Positions 1 through 15,255 of a stretch of DNA of 15,255 bases are shown here, piece after piece. Source of the stretch: a virus (taxonomy: Duplodnaviria > Heunggongvirae > Uroviricota > Caudoviricetes); IMG/VR virus record IMGVR_UViG_2541047698_000010; one strand, given 5' to 3'. The notes beneath the pieces are model-generated. The model saw nothing but the letters and a program-made list of their open reading frames with translations, did not search any database and was not told the DNA's origin. The position numbers and the translations under genes are program-made. Each line of letters opens with the position of its first letter. The first letter of the stretch is position 1.

Positions 1-1164
1 TTACGCCTTCTTTATATCCTCCATAATTCCACAGTGGGACATATTTGGGACATTATCACCAAAAATGTCGTCTATTTTCCTTGCATGCTCTGTCAAATGA
101 TTAGGCGCAAGGTGAGCATACCTACGAACCATTTCTATGGACTCCCATCCGCCCATTTCCTGAAGCACAGATAATGGGACGCCTGACTGGATCAGCCAGC
201 TTGCCCAGGTGTGTCTGAGGTCATGGAAACGGAAATCTTCAATTCCTGCACGACGACAAGCTGATAGCCATGATGTCTTGCTGTCGATGCGCATCTTCCT
301 GACCGCAGGCGTTGATGTTCCATCTGCTCGCTTAGCCGCCTTGGTATGTACAAACACCCATTTGTGATGCTTGCCTATTTGATCACGCAACACTTTACAG
401 GCGGTATCGTTCAGCGCCACACCAATGGCGCGGTTTGATTTGCTCTCTTCTGGATTCACCCAGGCAACTCGTCGCTGCATGTCGATTTGTTGCCATTCCA
501 GATTTATGATGTTCGACTTTCTCAGACCAGTTGCCAGCGCAAACTTGACGACAGATTTCAGTGGTTCGGGGCACTCATCAATAAGGCGTTTTGCTTCCTC
601 CTTTTCCAGCCATCTGACTCGCTTGTTTCTGACCGCTGGTATCTTGATGACAGGCGCTTTTTCCAGCCACTTCCAGTCGCGTTCTGCAGCACGGAGAATG
701 GCCTTTATCATGGCAAGATGCTTTGCCTTTGTCTGAGTTGATACTGGCTTTGGTTCATAAACAGGCGGTTCTTTACCTTTCCTGATGGCGGCCTGAACTT
801 TCTGTTTCCATATTTCTTTCGTCTTTCTGTTATGCATTCTGCTTACAGCAGAGTAAATCTTTGCCTCCGAGATATCTTTAAGCCTTATACCCTCAAAATG
901 TTCAAGCCAGAACTCAATCCGGCTTTTATCTGAATCGAGAGATTTTTTATCAGCTTTTTCCTCAAGCCATCTTAGGCAGGCCTCTTCAAAAGTGACATCA
1001 GGTAAATCCCCTAGCTTTTCTACTTGCCAGAGTTCTGCTTTTCGCTTGTCGTGCAACTCCTGAGCTTGCCGCTTGTCCTTTGTGCCAAGAGATTCCTTAA
1101 TTCGTTTCCCGCCCGGGAGCGAATACGAGGCATACCATATTTCATTTCTGCGGAAGAGTGACAT
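1..1164 (-). CDS. int: Phage tyrosine integrase (site-specific recombinase), DLP12 IntD-like
   Basis: 387-aa minus-strand ORF. C-terminal tyrosine-recombinase catalytic region (HDLRHTWAS ... VRRYAHL). N-terminus [18 protein letters not shown] resembles argU-targeting lambdoid integrases as recalled. Window position 1 is the stop codon. Confidence 0.9.
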
Positions 1165-1391
1165 TTTCTTTCCTCTGTTATGCCATCACCCGCGCTCACC
1201 TGGACAGTATGCAGCGGAGACTGAAGCGCCGCAATGCAAGCTTGCCGTGTTGTGAGGTAAGGAGATTTTGGCTTGGTTGGATCTTTACGTGTTGCCTGTA
1301 GGCGGCCTGTTCGTATCCAGTTGGTGGCGGTTGGTCTGGATATCTTAAGAAACTGACAGGCCTCATCGAGTGTGAGGCTGTATGGCTCCAT
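1020..1391 (-). CDS. xis: Excisionase / AlpA-like HTH DNA-binding protein (Xis)
   Basis: N-terminus [31 protein letters not shown] is a typical Xis/AlpA helix-turn-helix. ATG at 1391 overlaps the stop of the upstream gene (TAATG coupling). The last 145 nt overlap the int start, so the C-terminal end is uncertain. Confidence 0.55.
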
Positions 1392-1696
1392 TATTTCACC
1401 TCTTGCTGTGTCATTGTTGAAAAATGGATACCAGCTCGTTGCTGCCAGACGATCCAACCGAGAGTCATATCCCATGCCATGTATTCGTTATCGCCGTTTT
1501 TTACTCTCCGACGATCTACTAAGTCACCGAAACGCTTTTCCATGAATAATTCATAGGCTTCGCGTTCATCTGGCTCTACTTCCAGAGATACGAGTGCGAT
1601 TTCATAAGCACGGCGCTCAATATCGTCTCGAACCTCTAGGCTGCTGATTCGTTCTTTGATTTCTTTAATCAGTTCTTTATTGGTAAATGTGGTCAT
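1391..1696 (-). CDS. yfdT: Hypothetical early protein, CPS-53 YfdT-like (101 aa)
   Basis: 101-aa ORF, acidic, translationally coupled on both sides. Size and position match the yfdPQRST block of K-12 CPS-53 as recalled from memory. Confidence 0.55.
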   Translation of the reverse strand: MTTFTNKELIKEIKERISSLEVRDDIERRAYEIALVSLEVEPDEREAYELFMEKRFGDLVDRRRVKNGDNEYMAWDMTLGWIVWQQRAGIHFSTMTQQEVK

Positions 1697-2058
1697 TATG
1701 CTCCAGCCTCCGGTGCTTTTGGCATTACTGCCCAGTGAGTGATATTGACGTTTTCAAGGTCCCCGACCTGAAATGTCCACTGCCATTCTCCGGTTTCTTT
1801 TTGTCCCCAGGTGTACCAGAGAGAACGCCAGCCAATCAGCCAGCCTTCTCCATTAGCATCAAATAACAGAACACTTTCATTTGCTGGTGGCAGTTCAGCT
1901 GACACTGGTATTATTTTGTTTTCCAGTGCCGCACATTTAGCTTCAAGCGCGTCGAATTTACGTAACAGGTACTCAGCATTTGTTTCATTCACTTTCAGAT
2001 CTCGCGGTACACATTTCCCGCGAAGAAACCCTTCCATTTCGAAAACATTCATGCGCAT
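1696..2058 (-). CDS. yfdS: Hypothetical early protein, CPS-53 YfdS-like (120 aa)
   Basis: 120-aa ORF with GGAG Shine-Dalgarno 8 nt upstream of the ATG at 2058. Stop overlaps the next start. Confidence 0.55.
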   Translation of the reverse strand: MRMNVFEMEGFLRGKCVPRDLKVNETNAEYLLRKFDALEAKCAALENKIIPVSAELPPANESVLLFDANGEGWLIGWRSLWYTWGQKETGEWQWTFQVGDLENVNITHWAVMPKAPEAGA

Positions 2059-2585
2059 TTGCGTAACTCCGATAAATCGTTAAAACGTTCCATAAACATC
2101 CCGTAGGCATGACCCGGTGCCAGTGGAATCACGTTGAACATCTCTGTTGCCGGGATGCCTTCCAGTACAGGCCAGAAAGAGCCATCATCAAGCCCGAGAT
2201 CGCGGCGTTCGGTTGCCAGCATGATGAGATCGGCATATTTCACGGGTGTACTCATAACTGGGGGTAACCCGTATTTCTCACGGATTACGGCGTCTATTTT
2301 TTCTTCCATCCGTTTATAGTCAGGAAGAAGGCGTTTCAGTGGTGCGGGAATGTCCTGGCAATACGCTTCTGTTGCATCATGCATTAACGCTTCAAAAGCA
2401 AATTCCTGCGGCACCAGCTGGCTGCAAAGAACCGCATGTTGGGCGACGCTGTAGAAGTGCGAAAGATGACCGGCAAAGCGACAGATATTTGAAAGGGAAA
2501 CCGCGATATCGTTAATATCGATGTCGTCTTTATTTATCTTGTCATAATAAAAATGCTTCCCGGAAAAAGTTTTAATAAATGACAT
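2049..2585 (-). CDS. yfdR: HD-domain phosphohydrolase (5'-deoxynucleotidase, YfdR-like, 178 aa)
   Basis: HD motif (..EALMHDATEAY..) and further His/Asp metal ligands. Start taken at MSFIKTF (ATG 2585), which gives 178 aa; the ORF-track start at 2612 adds 9 residues. Confidence 0.8.
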   Translation of the reverse strand: MSFIKTFSGKHFYYDKINKDDIDINDIAVSLSNICRFAGHLSHFYSVAQHAVLCSQLVPQEFAFEALMHDATEAYCQDIPAPLKRLLPDYKRMEEKIDAVIREKYGLPPVMSTPVKYADLIMLATERRDLGLDDGSFWPVLEGIPATEMFNVIPLAPGHAYGMFMERFNDLSELRKCA

Positions 2586-2712
2586 TTTGTTCTCCACGTA
2601 TATGCACTGCACCGCGCTGAATTCTGGTAAAAGGAAGCCCTCACCATCCGGTGATTATTGAGTTAATTACGTTTCCATAAATGCCCCCGCAGGGGCATTT
2701 GCAGTAATGAAA

Positions 2713-3537
2713 TCAGGCGGTGAAAGTACCAATAAAGGTTTCTACTTTGCTGTCTTTGAATTTCTCAACAAGCAGATCACGAAATTCGTTAGCCATTTCT
2801 TCCTGCACCGCTTCCAGCTGAATAATGCGCAGAACCAGTACAGGACGATCGCCAGTGATAATGCTGAGGCGTAATTTAAACGGACGTTCTTTCAGACCTT
2901 CAAACGGAACGCATTTAAATTCAAATGCCACTGGCATAATGTCTTTGGTCTTCGCTTCGACAGACTCCATCAGGGAGCGTTTGCCGCTGAAGTCATTATC
3001 TTCAAAATCAGCGGTCTGGTTTGCTTCAATCGTGATTTTACGGACTGCCGCAGCCGCTTTTGTTGCCTGAATAGCGTCACCATTAGCATCAAAGCCCACA
3101 AGGTAGTCGGCCCAGTCTTCGATCCATTCTGCCAGTGACTTCTGGGAGTTACGCTCGCCGTTAACAGACAACAGAGCAGAGAACGGTGCTGTCTTTTTCA
3201 GTTTGAGAGTGGCAGTGTTATCTGCGTGACCTGGCTCATCAATAGTACCCAGGTTAAGCACACTGACGGCACGCATATTATCGGCATCGATAAAGCAGCG
3301 GGTGCCTTCATCTGCAAGATCTTTAGAATAACGGGTAAAATCATCGATGCTGGCAGTGGAAAGTGCACCACGGAAACGGAAGCGATTTAAATTAAATTTT
3401 TCCAGATCATGAATGCGGAAATTCTCAGGCAATGCCACAGCATCGGCACCAATCTTACTGATAATTTCATTAACACCCTGAGCAGAAATAAGGGCATGGA
3501 TTTGATTAATTGCGGTTGCGTCTAAGTTCTGAGACAT
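2713..3537 (-). CDS. yfdQ: DUF2303-family protein (YfdQ-like, 274 aa)
   Basis: 274-aa ORF with GAGGA Shine-Dalgarno upstream of the ATG at 3537. Sequence recalled as YfdQ-like. Confidence 0.7.
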
Positions 3538-3602
3538 AATAAGTCCTCACTATATAAAGATATTCAGTGATGAGATAAATAATCAGTTTATTACGAACGA
3601 TA

Positions 3603-3965
3603 TTAACGACCTGCTGCGCGGAGTTTTCCGTCAGGTTCACCGGCAAGAGTCAGTAATTGTCCCTGGTCTTCCTGCAGAATAGTCAGGCGACCACCGCGAT
3701 TGACATACATCGGCGTTTCGGTGGTGTCTTCTTCGGAAATTTTCCCGCGGTTAGTTGGGCGAACATATGAGAGTTTGTGTTTGATTTTCACACGGTTCTC
3801 ATCAAACGGTTCGATTTCCAGATTGAGTGAGACCTTCCCTTTGGTTTTCGTGTTCATCACACCGGAAGCGACCTCACTGAGAACTGCGCCGATTTTGGTT
3901 TCAAATACGCCGCCGTCCAGCTCCCCGATAAATGCCTGCACATCAGTACTGCGTTCGCTAGCCAT
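3603..3965 (-). CDS. yfdP: Hypothetical early protein (YfdP-like, 120 aa)
   Basis: Start chosen at MASERSTDVQ (ATG 3965) with a GAGGAG Shine-Dalgarno. The ORF-track N-terminal extension into the GC-rich region is Arg/Cys/Gly-rich and looks non-coding. Confidence 0.6.
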   Translation of the reverse strand: MASERSTDVQAFIGELDGGVFETKIGAVLSEVASGVMNTKTKGKVSLNLEIEPFDENRVKIKHKLSYVRPTNRGKISEEDTTETPMYVNRGGRLTILQEDQGQLLTLAGEPDGKLRAAGR

Positions 3966-4014
3966 TTTGCTGCTCCTCATCATATCGACCCTGCAAGGTC
4001 GGTTGGTTTCTCCA

Positions 4015-4101
4015 CAAAACAGAGAAGAACACCTGCGGTGGCAGCCGCCCGGATGGATTGGGTTATGAGCCCGTCGTCCGGTGATGCTCTTCTCTGTTTT
4101 G
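4015..4101. repeat. Perfect inverted repeat: 14-bp arms (4015-4028 / 4088-4101) around a 59-nt GC-rich loop
   Basis: CAAAACAGAGAAGA at 4015-4028 is the exact reverse complement of 4088-4101. An inner CACC/GGTG pair (4030-4033 / 4080-4083) extends the stem. Confidence 0.7.
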
Positions 4102-4102
4102 C

Positions 4103-4148
4103 AAAAAAGGACGGTACCAGCCGGAAGCAAGGGTACAAACTGGTACCG
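4103..4148 (-). terminator. Candidate intrinsic terminator on the leftward transcript (tL-like), about 140 nt upstream of yfdP
   Basis: 9-bp perfect stem CGGTACCAG (4112-4120) / CTGGTACCG (4140-4148) with a 19-nt loop. On the minus strand it is followed by UCCUUUUUUGC (plus A-run 4103-4108). Confidence 0.5.
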
Positions 4149-4149
4149 C

Positions 4150-4367
4150 CAGGACTACACACAGCATAAAGTTGTGGTGCCGGGTGCCTCCCGGTGCCTG
4201 GCGAAGGTTGCACACCAGGCGGGTGGGTATCCACAGAAGGTCGACTGTCAGCCTCAACCTTAACCCGCGTGCGCTGAGCCGCATTCACCACAACGCTAAG
4301 GATTCTCTCTGGTTGAAAATACTTAGCTGTTATGTGCCTGCTTTTAGCCACATCAGGCGAGGTGGAC
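4150..4367. other. GC-rich, highly structured non-coding block (candidate cis-acting RNA element or ncRNA)
   Basis: GC content clearly above the flanks. Several nested inverted repeats (GCCTGG/CCAGGC at about 4197-4220; AAGGTTG/CAACCTT at 4204-4210 / 4255-4261; GTGG/CCAC at 4223-4234). The ORFs here are Arg/Pro/Gly-rich with no Shine-Dalgarno. Confidence 0.35.
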
Positions 4368-4435
4368 CTGGTTATTCCCCAACAACAAGGATTCGGTTAA
4401 TCTGGATATCCCCAACAACAATAAGAGTATTCAAT
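4368..4435 (+). repeat. Two tandem 34-bp direct repeats (core CTGG-TAT-CCCCAACAACAA) abutting the start of the plus-strand gene
   Basis: 4368-4401 ctggttattccccaacaacaaggattcggttaat and 4402-4435 ctggatatccccaacaacaataagagtattcaat share a 12-nt identical core. Confidence 0.65.
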
Positions 4436-4459
4436 GTGATCGCTGAATTAACGGCAGCA

Positions 4460-4951
4460 ATGACGGCTATTCGTGAAACAGCCCAGATTGCAAAACTAAT
4501 GAACGAGGCAAAAACTCAAGCTGAAGTAAATGCGGCTATTGGTGAGCTGAACTCAAAGCTTGCGTCTATTCAGCGCGAATGCGTGTCTCTCGTTGAACTG
4601 GTGGGCTCTTATCAAGAAATAAATGCTTCTCTCAAAGCTAAAATTGCAGAATTCGAAAACTTTGAGGCTCAGACGGAAGGCTATATCCTTAACCAACTTG
4701 AGTCGGGTACTTTTGTATACTCGAAGGAGGTAATCGTGAACGGTGGCAGCATAACCATGCATCTTTGCCCAAAATGTTTTGGACAAAAGATAGTATCGAT
4801 ACTTCAACCATTCCCGGTTAGCGAAGATGAGCTTTTTCATAAAAGCAGGTGCCTCCACTGTGAAAATAAGTTTCTGATGAATAAAAATCCGGATTACGTA
4901 TCGCCTCCATCCATTGAGGAGTTGTCCAGAAAACTTAACGGCAATCTGTAG
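4460..4951 (+). CDS. Hypothetical coiled-coil / C4 zinc-ribbon protein (about 163 aa), convergent with cI and antisense to the pL operon
   Basis: N-terminal 75 aa are Ala/Glu/Lys/Leu-rich with heptad-like periodicity. C-terminus has CPKC-x24-CLHC. Own plus-strand terminator follows. Alternative GTG start at 4436. The ORF-track extension back to 4172 is GC-rich junk. Confidence 0.6.
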   Translation: MTAIRETAQIAKLMNEAKTQAEVNAAIGELNSKLASIQRECVSLVELVGSYQEINASLKAKIAEFENFEAQTEGYILNQLESGTFVYSKEVIVNGGSITMHLCPKCFGQKIVSILQPFPVSEDELFHKSRCLHCENKFLMNKNPDYVSPPSIEELSRKLNGNL

Positions 4952-4976
4952 ATTGCTACTGTTGTGGATATCCAGA

Positions 4977-4988
4977 TTGTTAAAGAGC
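4977..4988 (-). promoter_or_regulatory. boxA-like antitermination element (GCUCUUUAACAA) on the pL transcript
   Basis: Minus-strand sequence GCTCTTTAACAA is a 12/12 match to the rrn boxA core, about 100 nt downstream of the predicted pL start. A 6-bp hairpin (4941-4956) lies 20 nt further 3'. Confidence 0.4.
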
Positions 4989-4990
4989 TA

Positions 4991-5014
4991 AGCGTCCTGT
5001 AGGGCGCTTTTTTG
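4991..5014 (+). terminator. Intrinsic terminator of the plus-strand zinc-ribbon gene
   Basis: Stem AGCGTCC (4991-4997) / GGGCGCT (5002-5008) with one G-U pair, loop TGTA, followed by TTTTTTG. Confidence 0.6.
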
Positions 5015-5081
5015 TTGCTAATGAATCATCCTAGACTTCATATGCTCCAGGCGGCTACTTCGTGGGCGTCCTGCCTGTTTG

Positions 5082-5126
5082 TTGTTTCTCCTGGGTACAT
5101 TATGTATCCCAAAAGTACATTGTCAA
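5082..5126 (-). promoter_or_regulatory. Candidate pL promoter with OL operators
   Basis: Minus strand reads TTGACA (plus 5121-5126), a 16-17 nt spacer, then CATAAT (plus 5098-5104). Operator-type palindrome ATGTA-N9-TACAT at 5102-5120 and a degenerate copy TTGTT-N9-TACAT at 5082-5100, same geometry as the OR sites. Confidence 0.5.
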
Positions 5127-5130
5127 GTAT

Positions 5131-5153
5131 AAAAAAACCTGCCGAAGCAGGTT
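5131..5153 (-). terminator. Intrinsic terminator downstream of the repressor gene
   Basis: Stem ACCTGC (5137-5142) / GCAGGT (5147-5152), loop CGAA, followed on the minus strand by a 7-U tract (plus A-run 5131-5137). It lies 13 nt past the cI stop. Confidence 0.6.
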
Positions 5154-5165
5154 CATAAACATTGA

Positions 5166-5840
5166 TTAGGCTTTGATTTTGTATCTTCTTGGTTTTCCTG
5201 AGAAAATCACAGTTCCAATTATAGAGCAATTACCGTTGATCTTAATGTAAGGCTCAGGCCAGTTTGGGTTTAACGCTTTGAGATAACGCTGTGTCCCATC
5301 TTCTATCAACCTTTTGAAGGTGGTTTCACCTGTATCGTGCATCAATGCAATAACGTCGTCACCGTGGCAGGCAGGTACTTCAGGATCGACAAAAATCATG
5401 TCTCCCGGGCGGTACTCATCAATCATTGAATCACCTATCACCCGCAAGATATAAGTCATTTCCCCACAGGGTACAGGGCAGGGATACGTTTCTGCTGTGC
5501 TCAAATCAACCTCAGAATATCCAACTTCTTTCCATGCTCCGGCCTGTACCCATGATATGACAGGGACTAATGTGATTTGTTTATTAGTGATTGAAACATC
5601 AGGTTTTTTTGTGATGTTCGTTGTCTGGTGTTCTTGATCGAGCCATCCGACAGGCAGGTCGAAACATTTTTCGATGTGTCGTGCCATGCTGTCACCGATA
5701 TTTTTAGTAGCACCATCTCCCATAAACCTGCTGGTCTGGGTTGGCTCGCGATCAATCATAGTGGCAAAGGAAGAATTCCCGCCAACACCATCTCTCAGTT
5801 TTCTGGCGTTAGACCGCCGGATGTCATGGATTGTTTTCAT
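5166..5840 (-). CDS. cI: cI-like prophage repressor (N-terminal HTH, C-terminal S24 LexA-type autopeptidase domain)
   Basis: 224 aa. C-terminal region has the S24 serine (..VIGDSM..) and a downstream lysine (..TFKRL..). Divergent from the cro-like gene, with palindromic operators between them. Confidence 0.9.
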   Translation of the reverse strand: MKTIHDIRRSNARKLRDGVGGNSSFATMIDREPTQTSRFMGDGATKNIGDSMARHIEKCFDLPVGWLDQEHQTTNITKKPDVSITNKQITLVPVISWVQAGAWKEVGYSEVDLSTAETYPCPVPCGEMTYILRVIGDSMIDEYRPGDMIFVDPEVPACHGDDVIALMHDTGETTFKRLIEDGTQRYLKALNPNWPEPYIKINGNCSIIGTVIFSGKPRRYKIKA

Positions 5841-5846
5841 AACGAA

Positions 5847-5925
5847 ATTAAAACCCTTGTACCGTTAAGGTACAAGTATCTTGAAGGTTCATTTCAATCA
5901 TGTAATATGTATACCGGAGGTACAT
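5847..5925. promoter_or_regulatory. Divergent pRM / pR promoters with OR operators
   Basis: OR1 TTGTA-N9-TACAA at 5857-5875 (perfect palindrome CTTGTACCGTTAAGGTACAAG). OR2 ATGTA-N9-TACAT at 5907-5925. pR is TTGAAG (5881-5886), 16 nt spacer, TAATAT (5903-5908). Candidate pRM on the minus strand (TTGTAC / TTTAAT) would start at or next to the cI ATG. Confidence 0.55.
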
Positions 5926-5930
5926 ATTGT

Positions 5931-6131
5931 ATGAAAGCGTATTGGGACTCTTTAACCAAAGAACAGCAGGGCGAGTTGGCCGGAAAAGTTGGCTCAACAC
6001 CTGGCTACTTACGGCTGGTTTTCAATGGCTATAAAAAAGCCAGTTTTGTGCTGGCTAAAAAACTTGAGCAATGCACGTCAGGTGCAATTACGAAATCTGA
6101 CTTAAGACCGGATATCTATCCGAAAGATTAG
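5931..6131 (+). CDS. cro: Cro-like HTH regulator (66 aa)
   Basis: ATG at 5931 with a GGAGG Shine-Dalgarno 10 nt upstream. Small basic protein, first gene of the rightward operon. The ORF-track start at 5628 is an upstream extension across the operator region. Confidence 0.8.
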   Translation: MKAYWDSLTKEQQGELAGKVGSTPGYLRLVFNGYKKASFVLAKKLEQCTSGAITKSDLRPDIYPKD

Positions 6132-6162
6132 CAGAACACTTTCAATTTTTAACCACAGAACG

Positions 6163-6732
6163 ATGAGGCTAATCGTGGGTAAGCATCACTGGAAAATAGA
6201 AAAACAGCCTGAGTGGTACGTGAAAGCTGTCAGAAAAACTATCGCGGCGTTGCCGAGTGGTTACGCTGAAGCGGCTGACTGGCTCGATGTAACAGAAAAC
6301 GCTTTATTCAACCGCCTTCGTGCAGATGGCGATCAGATTTTCCCGCTGGGATGGGCAATGGTTTTACAGCGTGCTGGTGGCACTCATTTCATTGCTGATG
6401 CTGTGGCGCAGTCTGCAAATGGCGTCTTTGTGTCTCTTCCTGACGTCGAGGATGTGGACAACGCCGATATTAACCAGCGTCTGCTGGAAGTCATTGAACA
6501 GATCGGCAGTTATTCAAAACAGATTCGTTCAGCAATCGAAGACGGTGTAGTGGAACCGCATGAGAAGACAGCAATTAACGACGAGCTGTATCTCTCAATT
6601 TCGAAGCTGCAGGAGCATGCAGCACTTGTCTACAAAATTTTTTGCATTTCAGAAAGTAATGACGCCCGCGAGTGTGCAGCTCCGGGCGTCGTGGCGTCGA
6701 TTGCTTCTGGTTGTGGAGAAACTAACGCATGA
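6163..6732 (+). CDS. CII-like / YdaT-family regulatory protein (tentative)
   Basis: 189-aa ORF directly after cro, in the position of cII. Family assignment is from memory of YdaT/CP76-type proteins and is not confirmed. A GTG at 6175 is an alternative start. Confidence 0.45.
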
Positions 6733-7067
6733 ACAGTTTAACAACACACTACCGTCGCTCGCAACTGATTGCGCTTCCTGTACCGGGTGGAAAAGCGAAG
6801 GTGGAATATTGCTATGCAGTGAATGTACCAGGTGACAGGGAAATTGTAACCCACAGCTTTGCAGAGTGGGCTGTGGGGGATTTCAACCGGCAGAAGGAGA
6901 CAGTCCTTTGCGACAAGTTAACCGCTGGTTCAAAGATCACTACGGAGTGCCCGTCAGAGTCATTCGTTGGGAACCGGAAACACAACGGGTTATCTACCTC
7001 CGCGAAGGCTATGAGCATGAGTGCTTCAGTCCGCTCGAACAGTTTCGTCGTAAATTCAGGGAAATAG
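6729..7067 (+). CDS. Hypothetical protein (112 aa); frame uncertain in its 3' half
   Basis: ATGA start-stop overlap with the upstream gene. Its TAG stop lies inside the GAGG Shine-Dalgarno of the O-like gene. An overlapping frame (6866-7087) encodes a more globular-looking peptide. Confidence 0.35.
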
Positions 7068-7076
7068 AGGTCGGTC

Positions 7077-8018
7077 ATGAGCACTAAATTAACCGGCTAT
7101 GTATGGGATGGTTGCGCAGCGTCAGGCATGAAATTATCCAGCGTGGCAATTATGGCCCGCCTGGCTGATTTCAGTAATGACGAAGGTGTGTGCTGGCCAT
7201 CGATTGAAACCATTGCCCGCCAGATTGGCGCGGGGATGAGTACAGTCAGAACGGCTATCGCACGGCTGGAAGCAGAAGGCTGGTTAACGCGTAAGGCGCG
7301 TCGCCAGGGTAACCGCAATGCGTCGAATGTTTATCAGCTTAACGTTGCGAAGCTTCAGGCTGCGGCATTTTCTCAACTGTCAGATTCTGACCCGTCAAAA
7401 TCTGACGCATCAAAATCTGACCCGTCAAAATTTGATGCGTCGAAATCTGGCAAAAAAGCGGGTTTTCACCCGTCAGAATCTGGCGGGGATCCGTCAGTAA
7501 AATCAAAACATGATCCGTCAGATAAAAAACCTTCTCGTCCGGACGCTTCGCAACCGGACACGCAGACGGCTGAACAGGATTTTTTAACTCGCCATCCTGA
7601 TGCGGTTGTATTCAGCCCTAAAAAGCGCCAGTGGGGGACGCAGGATGATTTGACCTGCGCACAGTGGCTCTGGAAAAAAATCATCGCCCTGTACGAGCAG
7701 GCTGCCGAATGTGACGGCGAGGTGGTTCGTCCCAAAGAACCGAACTGGACAGCCTGGGCAAACGAAATTCGCCTGATGTGTGTGCAGGATGGTCGTACTC
7801 ACAAACAAATCTGCGAGATGTACAGCCGCGTCAGCCGCGATCCGTTCTGGTGCCGTAACGTGCTCAGCCCGTCGAAGCTGCGGGAAAAATGGGATGAGCT
7901 TTCCCTGCGCTTATCGCCGTCCGTAAGCACGTACACCGAAAAACGCGAAGACGCGTACTTCAAAGCCAGTTACGACAACGTGGACTACAGCCAGATCCCG
8001 GCAGGATTCAGGGGGTAA
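7077..8018 (+). CDS. Replication initiator, O-like (N-terminal winged-helix DNA-binding domain, repeat-encoded linker, C-terminal domain)
   Basis: 313 aa. N-terminus (..CWPSIETIARQIGAGMSTVRTAIARLEAEGWL..) is a replication-initiator winged helix. The central SDPSKSDASKSDPSKFDASKS linker is encoded by the iteron array. Confidence 0.75.
   Translation: MSTKLTGYVWDGCAASGMKLSSVAIMARLADFSNDEGVCWPSIETIARQIGAGMSTVRTAIARLEAEGWLTRKARRQGNRNASNVYQLNVAKLQAAAFSQLSDSDPSKSDASKSDPSKFDASKSGKKAGFHPSESGGDPSVKSKHDPSDKKPSRPDASQPDTQTAEQDFLTRHPDAVVFSPKKRQWGTQDDLTCAQWLWKKIIALYEQAAECDGEVVRPKEPNWTAWANEIRLMCVQDGRTHKQICEMYSRVSRDPFWCRNVLSPSKLREKWDELSLRLSPSVSTYTEKREDAYFKASYDNVDYSQIPAGFRG
7386..7450. repeat. Iteron-like tandem repeats (about 15-bp period, four to five copies) inside the O-like gene; candidate origin of replication
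   Basis: tctgacccgtcaaaa / tctgacgcatcaaaa / tctgacccgtcaaaa / tttgatgcgtcgaaa at 7386-7445. Further CCGTCAG copies and an A-rich stretch extend to about 7530. Confidence 0.55.
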
Positions 8019-8020
8019 TC

Positions 8021-8509
8021 ATGAGTCTTTTGAATGAAGTTCAGAAATTCATTGAAGCCCATCCGGGGTGTACTTCCGGAGACATTGCGGATGCTTTTGC
8101 AGGCTACTCACGGCAGCGCGTTCTGCAGTCAGCAAGCAAGTTACGTCAGAGTGGGCGTGTGGCTCACCGTTGTGAAGGGGATACACGCAGACATTTCCCG
8201 CGCCTGACTGAGAGAGCGCAGGAGCCGGAACCACAACCAGTTCGTGAAACCAGACCTGCGCGCAATTTCTATGTCGGCACTAACGATCCACGGGTAATTT
8301 TGTGCCTGACCCGCCAGGCTGAAGAACTGGAGTCCAGGGGCTTATACCGTCGTGCTGCAACCGTGTGGATGGCGGCATTCCGTGAAAGCCACTCCCAACC
8401 AGAACGAAACAATTTTCTGGCGCGTCGTGAGCGGTGTTTACGGAAAAGCAGCAAGCGCGCTGCATCGGGTGAAGAGTGGTATCTGTCAGGGAATTACGTG
8501 GGGGCTTAA
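8021..8509 (+). CDS. Hypothetical protein (162 aa), replication-module associated
   Basis: ATG at 8021 after a GGGGG Shine-Dalgarno, immediately downstream of the O-like gene. Stop overlaps the methyltransferase start (TAATG). Confidence 0.55.
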   Translation: MSLLNEVQKFIEAHPGCTSGDIADAFAGYSRQRVLQSASKLRQSGRVAHRCEGDTRRHFPRLTERAQEPEPQPVRETRPARNFYVGTNDPRVILCLTRQAEELESRGLYRRAATVWMAAFRESHSQPERNNFLARRERCLRKSSKRAASGEEWYLSGNYVGA

Positions 8510-9162
8510 TGAGTAATAAATATTGCCAGGCGCTGGTGGAACTGCGGAACAAACCAGCCCATGAACTGAAGGAAGTGGGCGATCAGTGGCGCACGCCGGA
8601 CAACATTTTCTGGGGAATTAACACCCTGTTTGGCCCGTTTGTTCTGGATCTGTTCACTGACGGTGATAACACCAAATGTGCTGCGTATTACACGGCGGAA
8701 GACAACGCGCTGGCGCATGACTGGTCAGAACGTCTTGCGGAGCTTAAAGGTGCTGCCTTTGGTAATCCCCCATACAGCCGCGCCAGTCAGCATGAGGGGC
8801 AATACATCACAGGCATGCGTTACATCATGAAGCATGCCAGTGCCATGCGTGATAAAGGTGGGCGCTATGTTTTCCTGATCAAAGCTGCCACCAGCGAAGT
8901 GTGGTGGCCGGAAGATGCAGATCATATTGCTTTTATTCGCGGGCGTATTGGTTTTGAACTGCCTGCCTGGTTTATCCCGAAAGATGAGAAGCAGGTGCCG
9001 ACAGGCGCTTTCTTCGCTGGTGCTATTGCTGTTTTCGACAAGACCTGGAAGGGACCGGCAATCAGCTACATCGGGCGCGATGAACTTGAGGCATGTGGTG
9101 AGGCGTTTCTGGCGCAGGTTCGCCAGCAGGCGGAAAAACTGGTCAGGGAGATGGCGGCATGA
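8509..9162 (+). CDS. Phage-type DNA N6-adenine methyltransferase (Dam family)
   Basis: 217 aa from the ATG at 8509. Motif IV ..FGNPPYS.. is characteristic of N6-adenine methyltransferases. The ORF-track GTG start at 8476 overlaps the upstream gene. Confidence 0.8.
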   Translation: MSNKYCQALVELRNKPAHELKEVGDQWRTPDNIFWGINTLFGPFVLDLFTDGDNTKCAAYYTAEDNALAHDWSERLAELKGAAFGNPPYSRASQHEGQYITGMRYIMKHASAMRDKGGRYVFLIKAATSEVWWPEDADHIAFIRGRIGFELPAWFIPKDEKQVPTGAFFAGAIAVFDKTWKGPAISYIGRDELEACGEAFLAQVRQQAEKLVREMAA

Positions 9163-9485
9163 CGACGTTAACTCAATGCCAGCAGCAGGTGCTGGATATG
9201 CTGATTTCTTATCAGAAAGAACGTGGCTTCCCGCCAACCAATCAGGAGGTGGCAACCATGCTGGGATACCGTTCAGTGAATGCAGCGGTGGAGCATCTTC
9301 GCGCACTGGAGAAAAAAGGCGTCATCACGATAAAGCGTGGTGTGGCCCGGGGGATCACGCTTCATACCGTGGTGAAGGACGACGACAGCGAGGCGGTCGG
9401 GATTATCCGCTCACTGCTTGCCGGTGAGGAAAACGCCAGGCTGCGTGCAGCCCACTGGTTACATGAGAGGGGCCTGAAAGTATGA
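9159..9485 (+). CDS. LexA DNA-binding-domain-only protein (108 aa; no S24 peptidase domain)
   Basis: Residues 5-68 align with the LexA N-terminal domain (LT..QQ.V.D.I......G.PPT..E.A..LG.RS.NAA.EHL.AL..KGVI.I..G..RGI.L). The recognition-helix region SVNAAVEHLRAL is conserved. The protein ends about 40 aa later. Confidence 0.7.
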   Translation: MTTLTQCQQQVLDMLISYQKERGFPPTNQEVATMLGYRSVNAAVEHLRALEKKGVITIKRGVARGITLHTVVKDDDSEAVGIIRSLLAGEENARLRAAHWLHERGLKV

Positions 9486-9877
9486 AGCTGATCCTACCTT
9501 TTCCGCCCAGCGTGAACACGTACTGGCGACACCCCAACAAAGGGGCGTTTGCTGGTAAGAGCCTGATAAGCGCGGCGGGGCGAAAATTCCAGAGCGCGGC
9601 GTGTGCAGCAATAGTTGAGCAGTTACGTCGTCTGCCGAAACCAACGTCGGCACCTGCTTCAGTGGAGATCGTGTTGTTTCCTCCGGATAACCGGATCCGC
9701 GATCTGGACAACTATAACAAGGCGCTGTTTGACGCCCTGACCCACGCGGGTGTGTGGGAAGACGACAGTCAGGTGAAAAGAATGCTGGTGGAGTGGGGAC
9801 CGGTTATCCCGGAGGGGAAGGTCGAGATCACTATCAGTAAGTACGAAAAAGCGAGTTGCAAATTAGCAACTCGGTAA
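9482..9877 (+). CDS. rusA: RusA-family Holliday-junction resolvase
   Basis: 131 aa with the LPFPPSVNTYW motif and an acidic DLDNYNKALFDAL segment. ATGA coupling with the upstream gene. Confidence 0.8.
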   Translation: MKLILPFPPSVNTYWRHPNKGAFAGKSLISAAGRKFQSAACAAIVEQLRRLPKPTSAPASVEIVLFPPDNRIRDLDNYNKALFDALTHAGVWEDDSQVKRMLVEWGPVIPEGKVEITISKYEKASCKLATR

Positions 9878-9922
9878 CGGAATTGAGCAACACCCTAAAT
9901 TTGGGTATTACCTCGTTAAAGA

Positions 9923-9942
9923 TACTGTATTTATGAACAGTG
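9923..9942. promoter_or_regulatory. SOS box (LexA operator) in the rusA / KilA-N intergenic region
   Basis: TACTGTATTTATGAACAGTG has the CTGT-N8-ACAG core and matches 16 of 20 positions of TACTGTATATATATACAGTA. A candidate promoter (TTGAGC 9883-9888, 17 nt, TATTAC 9906-9911) lies just upstream. Confidence 0.55.
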
Positions 9943-10039
9943 TATCCTTGATAACTATTAAAAATCGCAGTAAGTTCATCCTGCATCAACGAAAAGGGAG
10001 TGCAGTCCCGCTCGTGGATAAAAATTTGTGGAGAAACCA

Positions 10040-10855
10040 ATGAATCAGTTGCTTGTAATTGATGGCGTTTCTGTGCGCCAGTACTTCGAATCTAACTACT
10101 GTCTTAACGACCTTCAGAAAGCAGCTCTTCTTGCCGCTGGTGAGAATCGCTCCTCCCGTTCGCTGGAAGTTCACGAGTTTATGCGTCGTCCTGAAACGAA
10201 GGCTCTTGTGGAATTATTGGAAGAAGAAACTACGGGAGATTCCCGTAGTATTCCTGTCATCACCATTCAGGGGCGCAATGGTGGGACGTATGTCTGTAAA
10301 GAGCTGGTCTATGCATATGCAATGTGGATCAGCCCGGCATTCAGCTTAAAAGTGATACGTACTTTTGATGCGCTTCATAATTCATCACCAGAAGAAACCA
10401 CATCCGACAAAATTAAATCCGGGGTCATTCTGCTTGAATCAGCAGCAAAGACTCTAAATCTGTCAAACTCCTCGAAACTTGGTGCATACCAGAAATTATC
10501 AAAGGTAGCTGGTCTTCCTGAACTTATGCCGATCTATGCCATTGATGCACCTGCTGATGCGCCAGATGGTTCAAGCCGCCCTACGCTGTCGCTGAGTGCA
10601 CTGCTGAAGCAGTATGGTATCCGCCTGACGGCTAATCAGGCATATCACCAGATGGCGAAGCTGGGGATCGTTGAACAACGCGAACGATACAGCCGTACCG
10701 CGATTAACAACATCAAAAAATTCTGGTCGCTGACCGCGAAAGGCTGCATGTTCGGCAAGAACATCACCAGTCCTGCAAATCCGCGCGAGACGCAGCCGCA
10801 TTTCTTCGAATCCCGATTCCCTGAGCTGTTAAAGCTGCTCGATACCGTTCATTGA
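10040..10855 (+). CDS. KilA-N domain protein (antirepressor / Roi-like)
   Basis: N-terminal 110 aa (..VIDGVSVRQYFESNYCLNDLQKAA.. ..IPVITIQGRNGGTYVCKELVYAYAMWISPAF..) resemble a KilA-N domain. ATG at 10040 with GGAG 6 nt upstream. The ORF-track GTG at 10028 is less likely. Confidence 0.7.
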   Translation: MNQLLVIDGVSVRQYFESNYCLNDLQKAALLAAGENRSSRSLEVHEFMRRPETKALVELLEEETTGDSRSIPVITIQGRNGGTYVCKELVYAYAMWISPAFSLKVIRTFDALHNSSPEETTSDKIKSGVILLESAAKTLNLSNSSKLGAYQKLSKVAGLPELMPIYAIDAPADAPDGSSRPTLSLSALLKQYGIRLTANQAYHQMAKLGIVEQRERYSRTAINNIKKFWSLTAKGCMFGKNITSPANPRETQPHFFESRFPELLKLLDTVH

Positions 10856-10856
10856 G

Positions 10857-11852
10857 GTGACCGTGAGAGCACTACTGACCCCTGAAATTGCCCCGCGTAT
10901 GGGGATCGTATTGTTCAGACCAGGTTCAGAGCTGATGCCCTTGTTTATGCAGGGGCGTGTCCTGCTGGAGCCTGAGCCGGAACGTTATTCATCTTTCGCC
11001 AGTGGTGCCGTTCCGGCGGCATCACAACCGCTGGCGGATGATCCTGCCGTTCGGGCCGTGTTCCGCAATGAGGCAGTGATCCGTCGTGCTGGTGGCGTGG
11101 AATGTCTTGAAAGCTGGTTACTTCGTGAAAAAGGCTGCCAGTGGCCTCATTCCGACTGGCACAGCGAGAACATGACAACAATGCGACACGCTCCGGGCGC
11201 AATCCGTCTGTGCTGGCACTGCGATAACCAGCTGCGCGATCAGTTCACGGAACGGCTGGAATCAATGGCAACGGATAACTGTGCCCGCTGGGTGTTGTCT
11301 GTTGTGCGTCGGGATCTCGGTTTTGATGACAGTCATGTTGTGACAATGCCGGAACTGTGCTGGTGGCTGATTCGTAATGATCTGGCGGATGCCTTACCGG
11401 AAAGTGCAGCCCGTAAGGCACTGAGATTACCGAAGCCTGTTGTGCCGTCTGTTACCCGGGAAAGTGACCTTGTGCCTTCGGTTCCTGCCACCAGCATCAT
11501 CCAGGATAAGGCGAAAAAGGTGCTGGCGCTGAAAGTGGATCCGGAGTCGCCGGAGTCTTTTATGTTACGCCCAAAACGTCACCGCTGGGTTAATGAAAAG
11601 TACACGCGCTGGGTTAAGACGCAGCCGTGCGCATGTTGTGGAAAACCTGCTGATGATCCCCACCACCTGATAGGCCACGGTCAGGGGGGAATGGGTACAA
11701 AAGCGCATGACCTTTTTGTGTTGCCTTTGTGCAGAAAGCATCACGACGAGCTGCATGCGGATACCGTGGCATTTGAAGAGAAGTATGGCTCCCAGCTGGA
11801 GCTGATATTTCGTTTTATCGATCGCGCACTGGCGATTGGTGTGCTGGCCTGA
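10857..11852 (+). CDS. DUF968-like protein with C-terminal HNH-like zinc-finger motif
   Basis: 331-aa ORF. C-terminus C.CC....DDPHHL....GG.G.K.HD.....[10 protein letters not shown] resembles a His-Me / HNH finger. Start codon uncertain (GTG at 10857 or a downstream ATG). Confidence 0.55.
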
Positions 11853-11869
11853 TTTTGTGGAGAAAGTTA

Positions 11870-12253
11870 ATGCGTGATATTCAGATGGTTCTTGAACGTT
11901 GGGGAGCGTGGGCGGCTAATAATCATGAAGATGTGACCTGGTCGTCCATTGCCGCCGGTTTTAAGGGATTAATTCCTTCAAAAGTAAAATCTCGCCCGCA
12001 ATGTTGTGACGATGACGCGATGATCATTTGCGGGTGCATGGCCCGTCTGAAAAAGAACAACAGCGATTTACACGATTTATTAGTAGATTATTATGTATGT
12101 GGTATGACATTCATGTCACTGGCAAGTAAGCATTGCTGCTCGGATGGTTATATCGGGAAAAGGTTACAGAAGGCTGAGGGCATAATTGAAGGGATGTTAA
12201 TGGCATTAGATATCCGGTTAGATATGGATATCGTTGCTAATAATTCTAATTGA
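11870..12253 (+). CDS. Q: Late-gene antiterminator Q (phage 82 / DLP12 QuuD type)
   Basis: 127 aa from the ATG at 11870 with GGAGAAA upstream. [26 protein letters not shown]... is recalled as 82-type Q. The ORF-track TTG at 11855 is unlikely. Confidence 0.8.
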
Positions 12254-12275
12254 TATGCAATTGTTTACTAAAAGT

Positions 12276-12303
12276 TATTAAAAATGGGGCGTGGAAACGC
12301 CCC
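12276..12303 (-). terminator. Intrinsic terminator for the leftward porin / sRNA transcript
   Basis: Stem GGGGCGT (12286-12292) / ACGCCCC (12297-12303), 4-nt loop, followed on the minus strand by AUUUUUAAU. Confidence 0.5.
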
Positions 12304-12450
12304 CAAAATAAAGGGTAATATATAACAGAAGGTTTATATAGTAAGAAGCAAGGTAGTGCTTCTAAAGGAAGTGGCTTGAGGGCTCCACTTATATGTTGCG
12401 GAGGCAAAGCCTCCCGCAACATATCTTTTTCGTAAGTCAGATTAGAACTG
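12280..12450 (-). ncRNA. ipeX: Candidate IpeX-like sRNA at the porin 3' end
   Basis: By analogy with DLP12, where IpeX spans the nmpC 3' end and intergenic region. Here there is about 170 nt between the porin stop and the minus-strand terminator. No promoter was verified. Confidence 0.3.
12395..12430 (+). terminator. Intrinsic terminator for rightward transcription leaving Q (tR'-like or insulator)
   Basis: 11-bp stem with one bulge (12395-12405 / 12409-12420), loop AAA, followed by AUAUCUUUUU on the plus strand. Not U-flanked on the minus strand. Confidence 0.5.
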
Positions 12451-13524
12451 ATAAACCAGACCTACAGCGACGATGTCGTCGGTATCAATACCAGCTGTTT
12501 TGGTAAACTTACTATCGTCAATTAAGTTGATTTTGTAATCAACAAAAGTGGACATGTTTTTATTAAAGTAGTAAGTAGCACCGACATCGACATACTTGAC
12601 TAAGTCTCGGTCACCATGAACACCAAGGTCTTTACCTTTTGACTGAAGGTAAGCAACAGATGGACGCAGACCGAAGTCAAACTGATATTGTGCTACTGCT
12701 TCAAAGTTTTGTGCTTTGTTTGCAATATGGTTATTACCAAAAACGGTCATATTCTGAGTTTCAGAATATGTGGTAGCCAGATAGATATTGTTCGCATCAT
12801 ATTTCAGGCCTGCAGCCCATACTTCCGCATTTTTGCCGGAGGCATTGAATTTGCTCTTACCATAGGCGACCTGACCGTCAGTGCGATCTGATTTAGCATA
12901 GGTTGCACCCACGCCGAATCCTTCATACTCATAAGTAGTGGAGAAACCGAAACCATCACCATTGGCTTCAGTTACGTCAGTGCGGTCATTTTTACCCTGA
13001 TACTGAGCAGCAAAGTTCAGGCCATCGACCAGACCAAAGAAGTCGTTGTTACGATAAGTTGCAACACCAGTAGTGCGACCAGTCATGAACACATCTGTTT
13101 GGGTCCAGGTATCACCACCGAATTCTGGCAGGACGTCAGTCCACGCACCGATGTCGTATGCTACACCGTAGTTACGGCCGTAATCGATTGAGCCGTAATC
13201 ACCAAATTTCAGGCCTGCAAATGCAAGACGGGTTTTGTCTTTGGAAGAACCTTGAGATTCAGCACGGTTGCCTTTGAATTCATATTCCCACTGACCGAAA
13301 CCAGTCAGTTGATCGTTGATTTGGGTTTCACCTTTGAAGCCAAGACGGGCATAAGTAGTATCACCATCATCTGCATCATTAGAGGAGAAGTAGTGCTTGG
13401 CATTAACTTTCCCGTATAGATCCAGCTTGTTACTGTCTTTATTATAAATTTCAGCTGCCTGAGCAGACATCGCCATCAGTACTGATGCAGCTACAGCAGA
13501 AATTGCCACTGTTAATTTTTTCAT
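12442..13524 (-). CDS. nmpC: OmpC/OmpF-family general porin, prophage-encoded (NmpC / Lc-like)
   Basis: 360 aa with a signal peptide ([23 protein letters not shown]), a beta-barrel pattern with alternating aromatics, and C-terminal ..VGLVYQF. Opposite strand to Q and the lysis genes, as in DLP12 and PA-2. Confidence 0.9.
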
Positions 13525-13900
13525 TGTACGCCCTTTTTTTTGAACTATTATTAAAAAATGATGTCACTGCGCGATAAATATTCATCTAATCAATGCGATT
13601 ATTTCAAGATGTAAGTTTTAGTTTCTCATTTAATTTGTGAAGTAGATCTCTATTTTTATCTAAACCTTTTCTATCTAATCCTATTCATGGCTCTTGTTTG
13701 AACGAAAATAAATCTATTAGCTAATTTATATTAATGGCACTTATTTATAAGAGATCTATAATTCTTTAGCTTAATTTAAACAAACTAAAAATAACATCGG
13801 AAATTATTCATTGGTTATTTGTTGAAGTTTTCTTATGTATTTGTGGTGGTGTTTTGAACACTCGGTGGCATTCTCACAAATATCATTTAGTAGTTTACGT
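13525..13900 (-). promoter_or_regulatory. AT-rich upstream regulatory region of the porin gene
   Basis: About 375 bp of strongly AT-rich DNA with A/T tracts directly 5' of the porin start. No individual promoter boxes were assigned. Confidence 0.35.
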
Positions 13901-13951
13901 ACGTAAAAAATTGGTTATGCTGTTAAGAGTGGTTACTTCGTCACACAGCTT

Positions 13952-13984
13952 AAACCCGCCGTCGAGCGGGTTTTTCCATTTTTT
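13952..13984 (+). terminator. Intrinsic terminator upstream of the lysis cassette (tR'-like)
   Basis: 8-bp stem AAACCCGC / GCGGGTTT (13952-13959 / 13966-13973), 6-nt loop, then TTCCATTTTTT. Confidence 0.65.
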
Positions 13985-14113
13985 GAGTCTCGATATTAGC
14001 TGATAACCCAATACCTGAGTTATTCACTGACTCCGAATCTGTTACGTTTCTGCCTTTATTGCGATACGTAGTATCCCCTTAATTTACACCCGCTTTGTCT
14101 GCGAGGTGGGGTT

Positions 14114-14329
14114 ATGAAATCCATGGATAAGTTAACAACGGGTGTCGCCTATGGCACCTCAGCAGGTAGTGCCGGATACTGGTTTTTACAGCTGCTAGAT
14201 AAAGTCACGCCCTCACAGTGGGCGGCAATTGGAGTGCTGGGTAGCCTGGTATTTGGCCTGCTGACGTACCTGACAAACCTTTATTTCAAGATTAAAGAAG
14301 ATAAGCGCAAGGCTGCGAGAGGTGGATAA
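14114..14329 (+). CDS. essD: Class II holin, phage 21 S-type pinholin with dual start (S21-71 / S21-68)
   Basis: 71 aa beginning MKSMDK (Met1 and Met4 dual-start motif), two transmembrane segments, basic C-terminus. GAGGTGGGG Shine-Dalgarno upstream. Confidence 0.9.
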
Positions 14330-14826
14330 TGCCTCCATCATTACGAAAAGCTGTTGCTGCTGCTATTGGTGGCGGGGCTATTGCTATAGCATCTGTGTTA
14401 ATCACTGGCCCAAGTGGTAACGATGGTCTGGAAGGTGTGAGACATAATCCTTACAAAGACATAGTTGGTGTATGGACTGTATGTTACGGGCATACAGGAA
14501 AAGACATCATTCCCGGTAAAACGTATACCGAAGCAGAGTGCAAAGCCCTCCTGAATAAAGACCTTGCCACTGTCGCCAGACAAATTAACCCGTACATCAA
14601 AGTCGATATACCGGAAACAACGCGCGGCGCTCTTTACTCGTTCGTCTACAACGTGGGTGCTGGCAATTTCAGAACATCGACGCTTCTTCGCAAAATCAAC
14701 CAGGGCGATATCAAAGGCGCATGTGACCAGCTACGTCGCTGGACATACGCTGGCGGTAAGCAATGGAAAGGGCTGATGACTCGCCGTGAGATTGAGCGTG
14801 AAGTCTGTTTGTGGGGGCAGCAATGA
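14329..14826 (+). CDS. rrrD: SAR endolysin (phage 21 R-type lysozyme, T4-lysozyme fold)
   Basis: 165 aa. N-terminal Gly/Ala-rich signal-anchor-release segment ([16 protein letters not shown]). Catalytic E-D-T spacing in ..[22 protein letters not shown]... TAATG coupling with the holin. Confidence 0.9.
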
Positions 14827-15077
14827 GCAGGTTAACCGCGATTATCTCCGCTCTGGTTATCTGCATCATCGTCTGTCTGTCATGGGCTGTTAATCATTAC
14901 CGTGATAACGCCATTACCTATAAAGAACAGCGCGATAAAGCCACGTACATCATCGCTGACATGCAGAAGCGTCAACGTGACGTAGCAGAACTCGATGCCA
15001 GATATACAAAGGAGCTTGCTGATGCTAACGCGACTATCGAAAGTCTCCGTGCTGATGTTTCTGCTGGGCGTAAGCGC
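14823..15077 (+). pseudogene. rzpD: Rz i-spanin, truncated after codon 85 by an IS2 insertion
   Basis: ATGA coupling with the endolysin. N-terminal TM segment plus coiled-coil start matches Rz ([34 protein letters not shown]...). Reading frame runs into the IS2 terminal repeat at 15078. Confidence 0.65.
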
Positions 15078-15255
15078 TGGATTTGCCCCTATATTTCCAG
15101 ACATCTGTTATCACTTAACCCATTACAAGCCCGCTGCCGCAGATATTCCCGTGGCGAGCGATAACCCAGCGCACTATGCGGATGCCATTCGTTATAATGC
15201 TCGAACGCCTCTGCAAGGTTCTTTGCTGCCGTTAACCCGTCTGGTTTGGGCATGA
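15078..15255 (-). mobile_element. IS2 (IS3 family) right terminus, element continues beyond the window
   Basis: Sequence from TGGATTTGCCCCTATATTTCCAGACATCTG matches the IS2 right end as recalled. The minus strand encodes an IS3-family transposase C-terminus. Confidence 0.7.
15089..15255 (-). CDS. insD: IS2 transposase OrfB (InsD), C-terminal fragment; 5' part outside the window
   Basis: Minus-strand translation ..[53 protein letters not shown], stop at 15089-15091. [12 protein letters not shown] is the conserved C-terminal motif of IS3-family integrase-core transposases. Confidence 0.7.

Follow-up and report, generated by a model that had tools for sequence, protein, structure and literature searches.

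In phage λ, Rz is an inner-membrane protein with an N-in, C-out topology whose periplasmic domain binds the outer-membrane lipoprotein Rz1 (PMC5295617). Nonsense mutations throughout the periplasmic domain of λ Rz are lysis defective, and only the last residue is dispensable (PMC5295617). λ Rz1 carries a signal sequence of residues 1-19, which is followed by the lipoylated Cys20 (PMC5295617). A defect in either of these spanin subunits results in cells that become spherical, with the outer membrane still intact around them, and only this final step of lysis is affected, after excision, replication, and assembly have taken place (PMC5295617).

In this study, we analyzed a stretch of 15,255 nucleotides (referred to here as the window) from a tailed phage record, IMGVR_UViG_2541047698_000010, in which the gene pair encoding these two proteins is interrupted by the insertion sequence IS2. 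A preliminary description of the window had proposed that the insertion truncates Rz. We compared the window with complete Escherichia coli genomes, annotated phages, and IS2 copies, recovered the far side of the insertion from an identical public scaffold, and found that Rz and the embedded Rz1 gene are both divided at one position.

RESULTS

The window is the left arm of a lambdoid prophage and ends in a lysis cassette

The window consists of intD, early genes, quuD, an ompC-like porin gene, and lysis genes, which together form the left arm of a prophage. In close relatives, the prophage is located at the DLP12 locus, next to tRNA-Arg and fimZ, and has a full complement of terminase, portal, head, and tail genes further on. 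A lambdoid lysis cassette of holin, endolysin, and Rz genes takes up the last 1.2 kb of the window, as identified by a Pfam search and the list of open reading frames (Table 1). The holin gene that heads the cassette is intact and is annotated as essD in identical relatives. The endolysin gene is annotated as rrrD in relatives, and its stop codon overlaps the Rz start codon at 14823 (ATGA).

The porin gene, which is annotated as "porin OmpC" in relatives and is nmpC/lc-like, is prophage cargo situated between quuD (the Q antiterminator gene, about 11870-12253) and the holin gene, on the opposite strand. Signs of older decay were seen at two places. The counterpart of window positions ~3980-4291 (minus strand) in strain KK19-02 (L003 18980-19291) carries the annotation of a hypothetical protein with a frameshift, and a short partial helix-turn-helix pseudogene of the same strain (L003 16329-16391) corresponds to window positions ~1329-1391. 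This decay is minor and is common to the relatives, and thus it predates the IS2 event. The window starts exactly at the stop codon of intD (1-3) and finishes at the stop codon of a chimeric Rz1-IS2 open reading frame (15253-15255), so its limits seem to have been set by gene calls.

Table 1. Positions of prophage, spanin, and IS2 features in the window
Feature	Position	Strand	Evidence or remark
Integrase gene intD, open reading frame intact	1-1164	-	
OmpC-family porin gene, 360 aa, intact	12442-13524	-	Annotation in relatives
Holin gene, essD/phage 21 S type, 71 aa	14114..14329	+	PF04971 Phage_holin_2_1, E = 2e-35
Endolysin gene, lysozyme RrrD-like, 165 aa, intact	14329..14826	+	PF00959 Phage_lysozyme, E = 3e-48
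Rz (i-spanin), codons 1-85	14823..15077	+	PF03245 Phage_lysis, E = 3e-14; 255/255 nt identical to intact allele
Chimeric frame of Rz 1-85 plus 28 IS2-derived residues, 113 aa	14823..15164	+	Open reading frame list and sequence; stop codon at 15162-15164
86-codon open reading frame: upstream in-frame ATG, Rz1 start and signal peptide, 58 codons of antisense IS2	14995..15255	+	Open reading frame list and translation
Shine-Dalgarno sequence of embedded Rz1, AAGGAG, 7 nt before the ATG	15009..15014	+	Read from the sequence
Rz1 (o-spanin) ATG and 19-codon lipoprotein signal peptide	15022..15078	+	+1 frame within Rz
5-bp target site AGCGC	15073..15077	.	Repeated past the other IS2 end, outside the window
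IS2 right terminal inverted repeat (IRR), 41 bp	15078..15118	.	Identical to the published IRR
Right-hand 178 bp of IS2; the element extends past the window end	15078..15255	-	178/178 identity
Last 54 codons and stop codon of the IS2 transposase (orfB/OrfAB)	15089..15253	-	NCBIfam NF006918 and Pfam rve_3

Rz is interrupted after codon 85

Rz stands directly after the endolysin gene, and the part that remains in the window, the 5' 58% of a 145-codon gene, encodes the N-terminal membrane anchor and the first periplasmic part. Its identity to the intact Rz gene holds in both L001 and L003, and many complete E. coli genomes carry an annotation of this intact allele (438 nt, 145 aa), as at L001 6724-7161. 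Over a longer stretch, many complete E. coli genomes match window positions 14100-15077 with 100% identity, and every one of these matches stops exactly at 15077. Between 15077 and 15078, the window passes from GTAAGCGC to TGGATTTGCC, whereas the intact allele passes from GTAAGCGC to CTGCAAGTCG. Both halves of this junction exactly match known sequences, so the resemblance is not a matter of chance, and the preliminary description was exact in placing the end of the intact Rz frame at codon 85 and the start of the IS2 repeat at 15078.

Could Rz instead be a naturally short variant with IS2-like sequence merely adjacent to it? The one point in favor of this reading is the apparent end of the open reading frame. 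However, the alleles that are identical through codon 85 in IS-free genomes run 60 codons further to a Pfam-complete Rz, which covers positions 11-125 of the 126 of the Phage_lysis profile (E = 4e-35), and none of these homologues ends naturally at codon 85. The reconstructed 145-aa Rz matches PF03245 with E = 4e-35 and PHROG 13 with E = 3e-72, and the same 145-aa architecture is found in phages mEp234, HF4s, and Stx2a_WGPS8. In addition, the 3' half of the gene is present after the IS element in the scaffold described below. We consider the short-variant reading refuted and give it virtually no credence. The frame in the window departs from Rz after codon 85 of 145, well before the C terminus of the periplasmic domain, and the Rz gene here is a disrupted member of PF03245, that is, a pseudogene.

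The interrupting element is IS2

The 41 bp that begin at the junction are identical to the IRR of IS2 as given by an oligonucleotide of the sequence TGGATTTGCCCCTATATTTCCAGACATCTGTTATCACTTAA (PMC3219604). The whole of 15078-15255 matches copies annotated as "IS3-like element IS2 family transposase" at all 178 positions, and more than 3000 records match it at 99% identity or above. A 1331-bp IS2 copy in strain E2863 (L006), which has a 5-bp duplication at its ends, begins with the same 178 nt. A complete IS2 is an element of 1331 bp that carries orfA and orfB with a programmed -1 frameshift. Eight other full IS2 copies that we measured were all 1331 bp long and all had 5-bp duplications. The opposite strand encodes the end of the IS2 DDE transposase, in agreement with the earlier assignment of this strand to the C terminus of an IS3-family transposase; the visible part is the C terminus only, and it aligns with positions 248-301 of the 301 of NF006918, "IS2 transposase TnpB" (E = 1.6e-34), and with rve_3 (E = 4.5e-9).

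The far side of the insertion carries the target duplication and the remainder of Rz

The IS2 element extends past the window, and its other end was found through an exact-protein look-up of the 77-aa open reading frame that begins at 15022. The look-up led to assembly GCA_000456365.1, scaffold KE699051.1 (L009), in which positions 1-10234 are the same as window positions 5022-15255, with 0 mismatches over 10,234 bases, so that L009 is either the source of the window or its exact equal over this stretch. The end of the window corresponds to L009 10234, which is 34 nt ahead of a scaffold gap of 910 N in IS2 (last base before the gap, L009 10268). The right end of IS2 in this scaffold comprises 212 bp (10057-10268; 212/212 identical to the E2863 copy) and is followed by the gap (10269-11178) and then by 94 bp of the left end (11179-11272), which ends in ...GGGGGCCAGTCTA and is identical to the E2863 copy at 93 of 94 positions. 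The scaffold thus holds 306 bp of sequenced IS2, with 910 N where 1025 bp are expected, and from its two ends we infer, rather than see directly, a full-length and undamaged element of 1331 bp of which ~1025 bp lie under the Ns.

The sequence AGCGC at L009 10052-10056, immediately before IS2, has a second copy at 11273-11277, immediately past the left end of IS2 and about 1.2 kb downstream of the junction across the gap. The second copy is followed by CTGCAAGTCGCC... and then by the remaining Rz sequence, which is the same as in the intact allele. Removal of IS2 and one AGCGC from L009 yields the exact 438-nt Rz gene of L001. The distal IS2 end, the 5-bp target duplication, and the 3' half of Rz had all been anticipated at about this distance, and all of them are found in L009. 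The joining of the two flanks rests on the scaffolding by the assembler together with the matching AGCGC duplication.

Two other accounts of the junction bear on this joining. One is a larger rearrangement mediated by IS2 (a deletion, an inversion, or recombination between two IS2 copies, for instance), of which the junction would be the mark; the window would then not continue directly into the 3' half of Rz and the late genes. The window does end inside IS2, and with 910 N in the element the contiguity is not established base by base. Nevertheless, past the gap we found the left end of IS2, the same AGCGC, the exact continuation of Rz, and downstream prophage genes that keep the order seen in IS-free relatives, whereas recombination between two different IS2 copies would leave no matching target duplication. 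A rearrangement is therefore very improbable. The other account is an assembly artifact in which a short-read contig was mis-extended into a repeat, and it is true that IS elements are the usual places at which short-read contigs break and that L009 does break inside IS2. Against it, the two flanks were assembled independently, and each has the correct IS2 terminus abutting Rz together with the reciprocal 5-bp duplication. Matching termini and a duplication on both flanks are not the signature of a chimera, and we regard an artifact as exceedingly improbable.

A second IS3-family element was observed in L009 at 11971-13441, ~0.5 kb past the Rz stop codon, where it splits the KilA-N domain gene that follows Rz; this gene is intact in the IS-free relatives L001 and L003. 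The ends of the element read TGAACCGCCCCGGG..., 492 bp of it are 100% identical to copies annotated with "IS3 family transposase" and "AL1L pseudoknot," and it contains a gap of 920 N. We take it to be IS629/IS1203-like. Its flanks show no clean target duplication (GAA versus GGA).

The same insertion splits Rz1 between its signal peptide and the lipobox cysteine

The preliminary description had placed the remainder of Rz and the whole of Rz1 beyond the distal IS2 end. This holds for the remainder of Rz but not for Rz1, whose Shine-Dalgarno sequence, start codon at 15022, and signal peptide all lie in the window. The Rz1 start is 199 nt after the Rz start, which is the same offset as that of the annotated Rz1 coding sequence of phage Stx2a_WGPS8, a 98%-identical copy annotated as "Rz1 protein" inside Rz. 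In the intact allele, Rz1 is a protein of 61 aa in which the first 20 residues are followed by KSPPPVQSQRPEPAAWAMEKAQDLQQMLNSIITVSEVESTR. It matches Pfam Rz1 (PF06085; E = 2e-20), with the alignment starting at Cys20, and PHROG 3198, "Rz-like spanin" (E = 9e-29), and the embedded frames of functional phages, mEp234 and HF4s among them, give a translation of 100% identity.

IS2 lies between Ala19 and the lipobox Cys20 of Rz1. Codon 19 is finished by the first base of IS2, which changes GCC to GCT and keeps the alanine, and codon 20 in the window is GGA (Gly) in place of TGC, the codon for the lipidated cysteine. Cys20 and the mature domain are found beyond IS2, from L009 11279. The window therefore has an embedded +1-frame gene with its own start and a lipoprotein signal peptide, but the lipobox cysteine and the proline-rich mature domain are no longer contiguous with that signal peptide. 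Because of this position, one insertion breaks both spanin subunits.

This arrangement also alters the reading of the plus-strand open reading frame at 14995-15255, which had been set down as an artifact of the junction. From 15022 onward it is the real 5' end of Rz1 and then antisense IS2 sequence, and the public assembly has an independent gene call for it that begins at 15022. Its product is without the lipobox cysteine, and the chimera gives no Pfam match.

At the distal junction (L009 11255-11290), the Rz1 frame reads ...G-A-S-L-S-A-C-K-S-P-P-P, which places a canonical L-S-A-C lipobox just before mature Rz1. The possibility that the IS2 left end and AGCGC have recreated a functional Rz1 (...LSAC followed by KSPPP) was considered and rejected. 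The IS2-derived leader, which would start at an ATG 81 nt inside the IS element, has no Shine-Dalgarno sequence and is weakly hydrophobic (best 10-residue Kyte-Doolittle mean of 1.24, versus 2.75 for the true signal), so that export and lipidation of such a protein are unlikely. The recreated lipobox is probably a coincidence, and Rz is truncated whatever its status.

The insertion is recent, and other IS2 copies are found near Rz

Positions 1-15077 of the window differ from strain KK19-02 at only 7 positions, and five complete genomes that are at least 99.9% identical over 15 kb all have an uninterrupted Rz. Because relatives as close as these retain an intact Rz, the insertion is very recent and strain specific. 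The junction was present in none of 5,426 complete E. coli genomes. As an exact pattern, the proximal junction was absent from species-representative genomes, metagenome contigs, and viral contigs; the predicted distal junction was likewise absent from species-representative genomes as an exact pattern and from metagenome and viral contigs as a gapped pattern. Exact-protein look-ups returned no record for the 113-aa and 117-aa Rz-IS2 chimeras or for the product of the 86-aa open reading frame, and only the 77-aa version was found.

An IS2 right end within ~640 bp of this Rz segment was present in only 2 of the 5,426 complete genomes. Strain CH4804 (NZ_CM166344.1; L002 6990-8320) has a full 1331-bp IS2 in the Rz/Rz1 overlap, 11 bp downstream of the site described here and in the same orientation. 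The CH4804 insertion is flanked by a GTCGC duplication and involves a different IS2 variant and an Rz allele of ~95% identity, and since the duplication, the variant, and the allele all differ, it is a separate event. In CH4804, PGAP annotated the split gene as two pseudogenes, each a partial "lysis system i-spanin subunit Rz." IS2 was also seen in other lambdoid prophages, namely, in STEC384 (L005 3705-5035), ~20 bp after the rzpD stop codon and before iss/bor, and in 20A24 (L004 3152-4482), just downstream of Rz in a downstream open reading frame. In all four cases (the window, CH4804, STEC384, and 20A24), the transposase gene lies on the strand opposite to that of the late operon.

For many IS2 copies elsewhere in E. 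coli, the alignment with the query extends 10-30 nt beyond IS2 into its Rz flank, as at the pdeL site (GGCGCGTAAGCC versus GGGCGTAAGCGC). A target motif of IS2 was considered as an explanation and rejected: none was shared by nine insertion sites that we inspected, and such matches are likely to arise by chance among more than 18,000 IS2 places.

DISCUSSION

The explanation that we hold with high confidence is a simple and recent insertion of IS2 into the Rz/Rz1 overlap, with the consequences for lysis that are set out here. A single transposition brought IS2, with an inferred length of 1331 bp, into a lambdoid prophage integrated next to tRNA-Arg at the DLP12/intD locus, and IS2 left its usual 5-bp target duplication, AGCGC, with the transposase gene antisense to phage late transcription. 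The position of the insertion, the identity of the element, the duplication, the intact 3' half of Rz, and the recency of the event are all shown by the sequences. Cut after codon 85 of 145, Rz has lost the distal periplasmic part, which in λ contacts Rz1, and the Rz1 signal peptide (codons 1-19) is parted from the lipidated Cys20 and the mature domain. By homology, a product made of Rz residues 1-85 and 28 IS2-derived residues would be unable to reach or bind Rz1, and a fusion of the Rz1 signal peptide with IS2-derived sequence would lack a lipobox. Upon induction, the intact holin and endolysin should still attack the inner membrane and the cell wall, and the final disruption of the outer membrane should fail, leaving fragile spherical cells unless shear or low divalent cations break them. 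Spontaneous release of virions is accordingly predicted to be poor at low shear and high Mg2+.

The expected loss of spanin function and the lysis phenotype depend on data from λ carried over by homology to the 145-aa Rz allele of this prophage. This allele, with its 61-aa Rz1, is of the P22 type. The earlier view that the lysis cassette is spanin defective gains support as a prediction, with Rz and Rz1 both cut. The further suggestion that the insertion helps trap the prophage finds no support in the sequence: the insertion leaves the integrase gene and the genes for excision and replication as they are, and a lack of spanin function comes into play only once virions have been made.

Whether the location of the insertion has a meaning beyond neutral decay can be asked in two ways. 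This particular insertion may have been selected, or may have struck an IS2 hot spot, such that phage release is disarmed while holin and endolysin are kept. The independent IS2 in CH4804 and the IS2 copies just downstream of Rz in STEC384 and 20A24, antisense to late transcription, speak for such an account. However, the low count of complete genomes with an IS2 right end near Rz and the lack of a common motif among the nine target sites speak against it, and no insertion was found in more than one listed record or assembly, a pattern that does not point to selective spread. The second IS element in the neighboring prophage gene of L009 likewise fits random bombardment by IS elements. We therefore think it quite unlikely that this insertion is anything other than neutral decay. 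The more general proposal is that the Rz/Rz1 overlap of DLP12-type prophages is a preferred landing zone for IS2 or that spanin knockouts are mildly favored in lysogens, which could gain from blunted phage release with holin and endolysin kept. This proposal derives from two IS2 insertions that arose independently in different Rz alleles, with like orientation and only 11 bp between their sites, and from further IS2 copies just downstream of Rz in other strains. Two sites this close hint at a regional preference; yet there is no motif, the absolute frequency is very low, and we regard the general proposal as unlikely.

For annotation, simple insertion of IS2 means that both halves of Rz and both halves of Rz1 should be treated as pseudogene fragments of one event and that the chimeric open reading frames (the 113-aa Rz-IS2 frame and the 77/86-aa Rz1 signal-IS2 frame) should not be annotated as proteins. 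The embedded gene pair offers a neat case of one insertion that makes two knockouts. It also shows an otherwise near-intact prophage that has very recently begun to decay, with a second IS element 0.5 kb on, while relatives of >99.9% identity have neither element. Beyond correct annotation, the importance of the finding is small.

The locus can be set beside several known systems. IS2 and Rz/Rz1 are both textbook systems and the disruption of prophage genes by IS elements is commonplace, so that what we describe is already known biology. Compared with known IS2, the element has the same IRR, the same 178 bp (212 bp in the scaffold), the same TnpB C terminus, and a left end of ...GTCTA; its sequenced parts show no difference, and the central ~1 kb of this copy is a scaffold gap. 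The embedded Rz/Rz1 spanins of lambdoid phages such as mEp234, HF4s, and Stx2a_WGPS8 have the same order of holin, endolysin, and Rz with Rz1 in the +1 frame. Intact alleles are identical to the window in Rz codons 1-85 and in Rz1 codons 1-19, and a signal peptide of 19 residues before Cys20 is as in λ. Unlike in intact lambdoid Rz/Rz1, both genes are cut here at one nucleotide position, and neither full-length product is possible.

The Rz insertion of CH4804 involves the same element in the same orientation and gene, in a DLP12-like locus with quuD, an ompC-like porin gene, essD, and rrrD. It differs in its target duplication (GTCGC versus AGCGC), in an IS2 that is identical to the E2863 copy at 1278 of 1331 positions, and in its ~95%-identical Rz. 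Defective lambdoid prophages of E. coli K-12 also carry genes disrupted by IS elements, such as nmpC of DLP12, which is interrupted by IS5. The nmpC::IS5 insertion shares with the present case the argU/intD locus and the decay of a prophage by IS bombardment, while the IS element and the gene that it disrupts are different, and the relatives of the present prophage keep a full set of head and tail genes.
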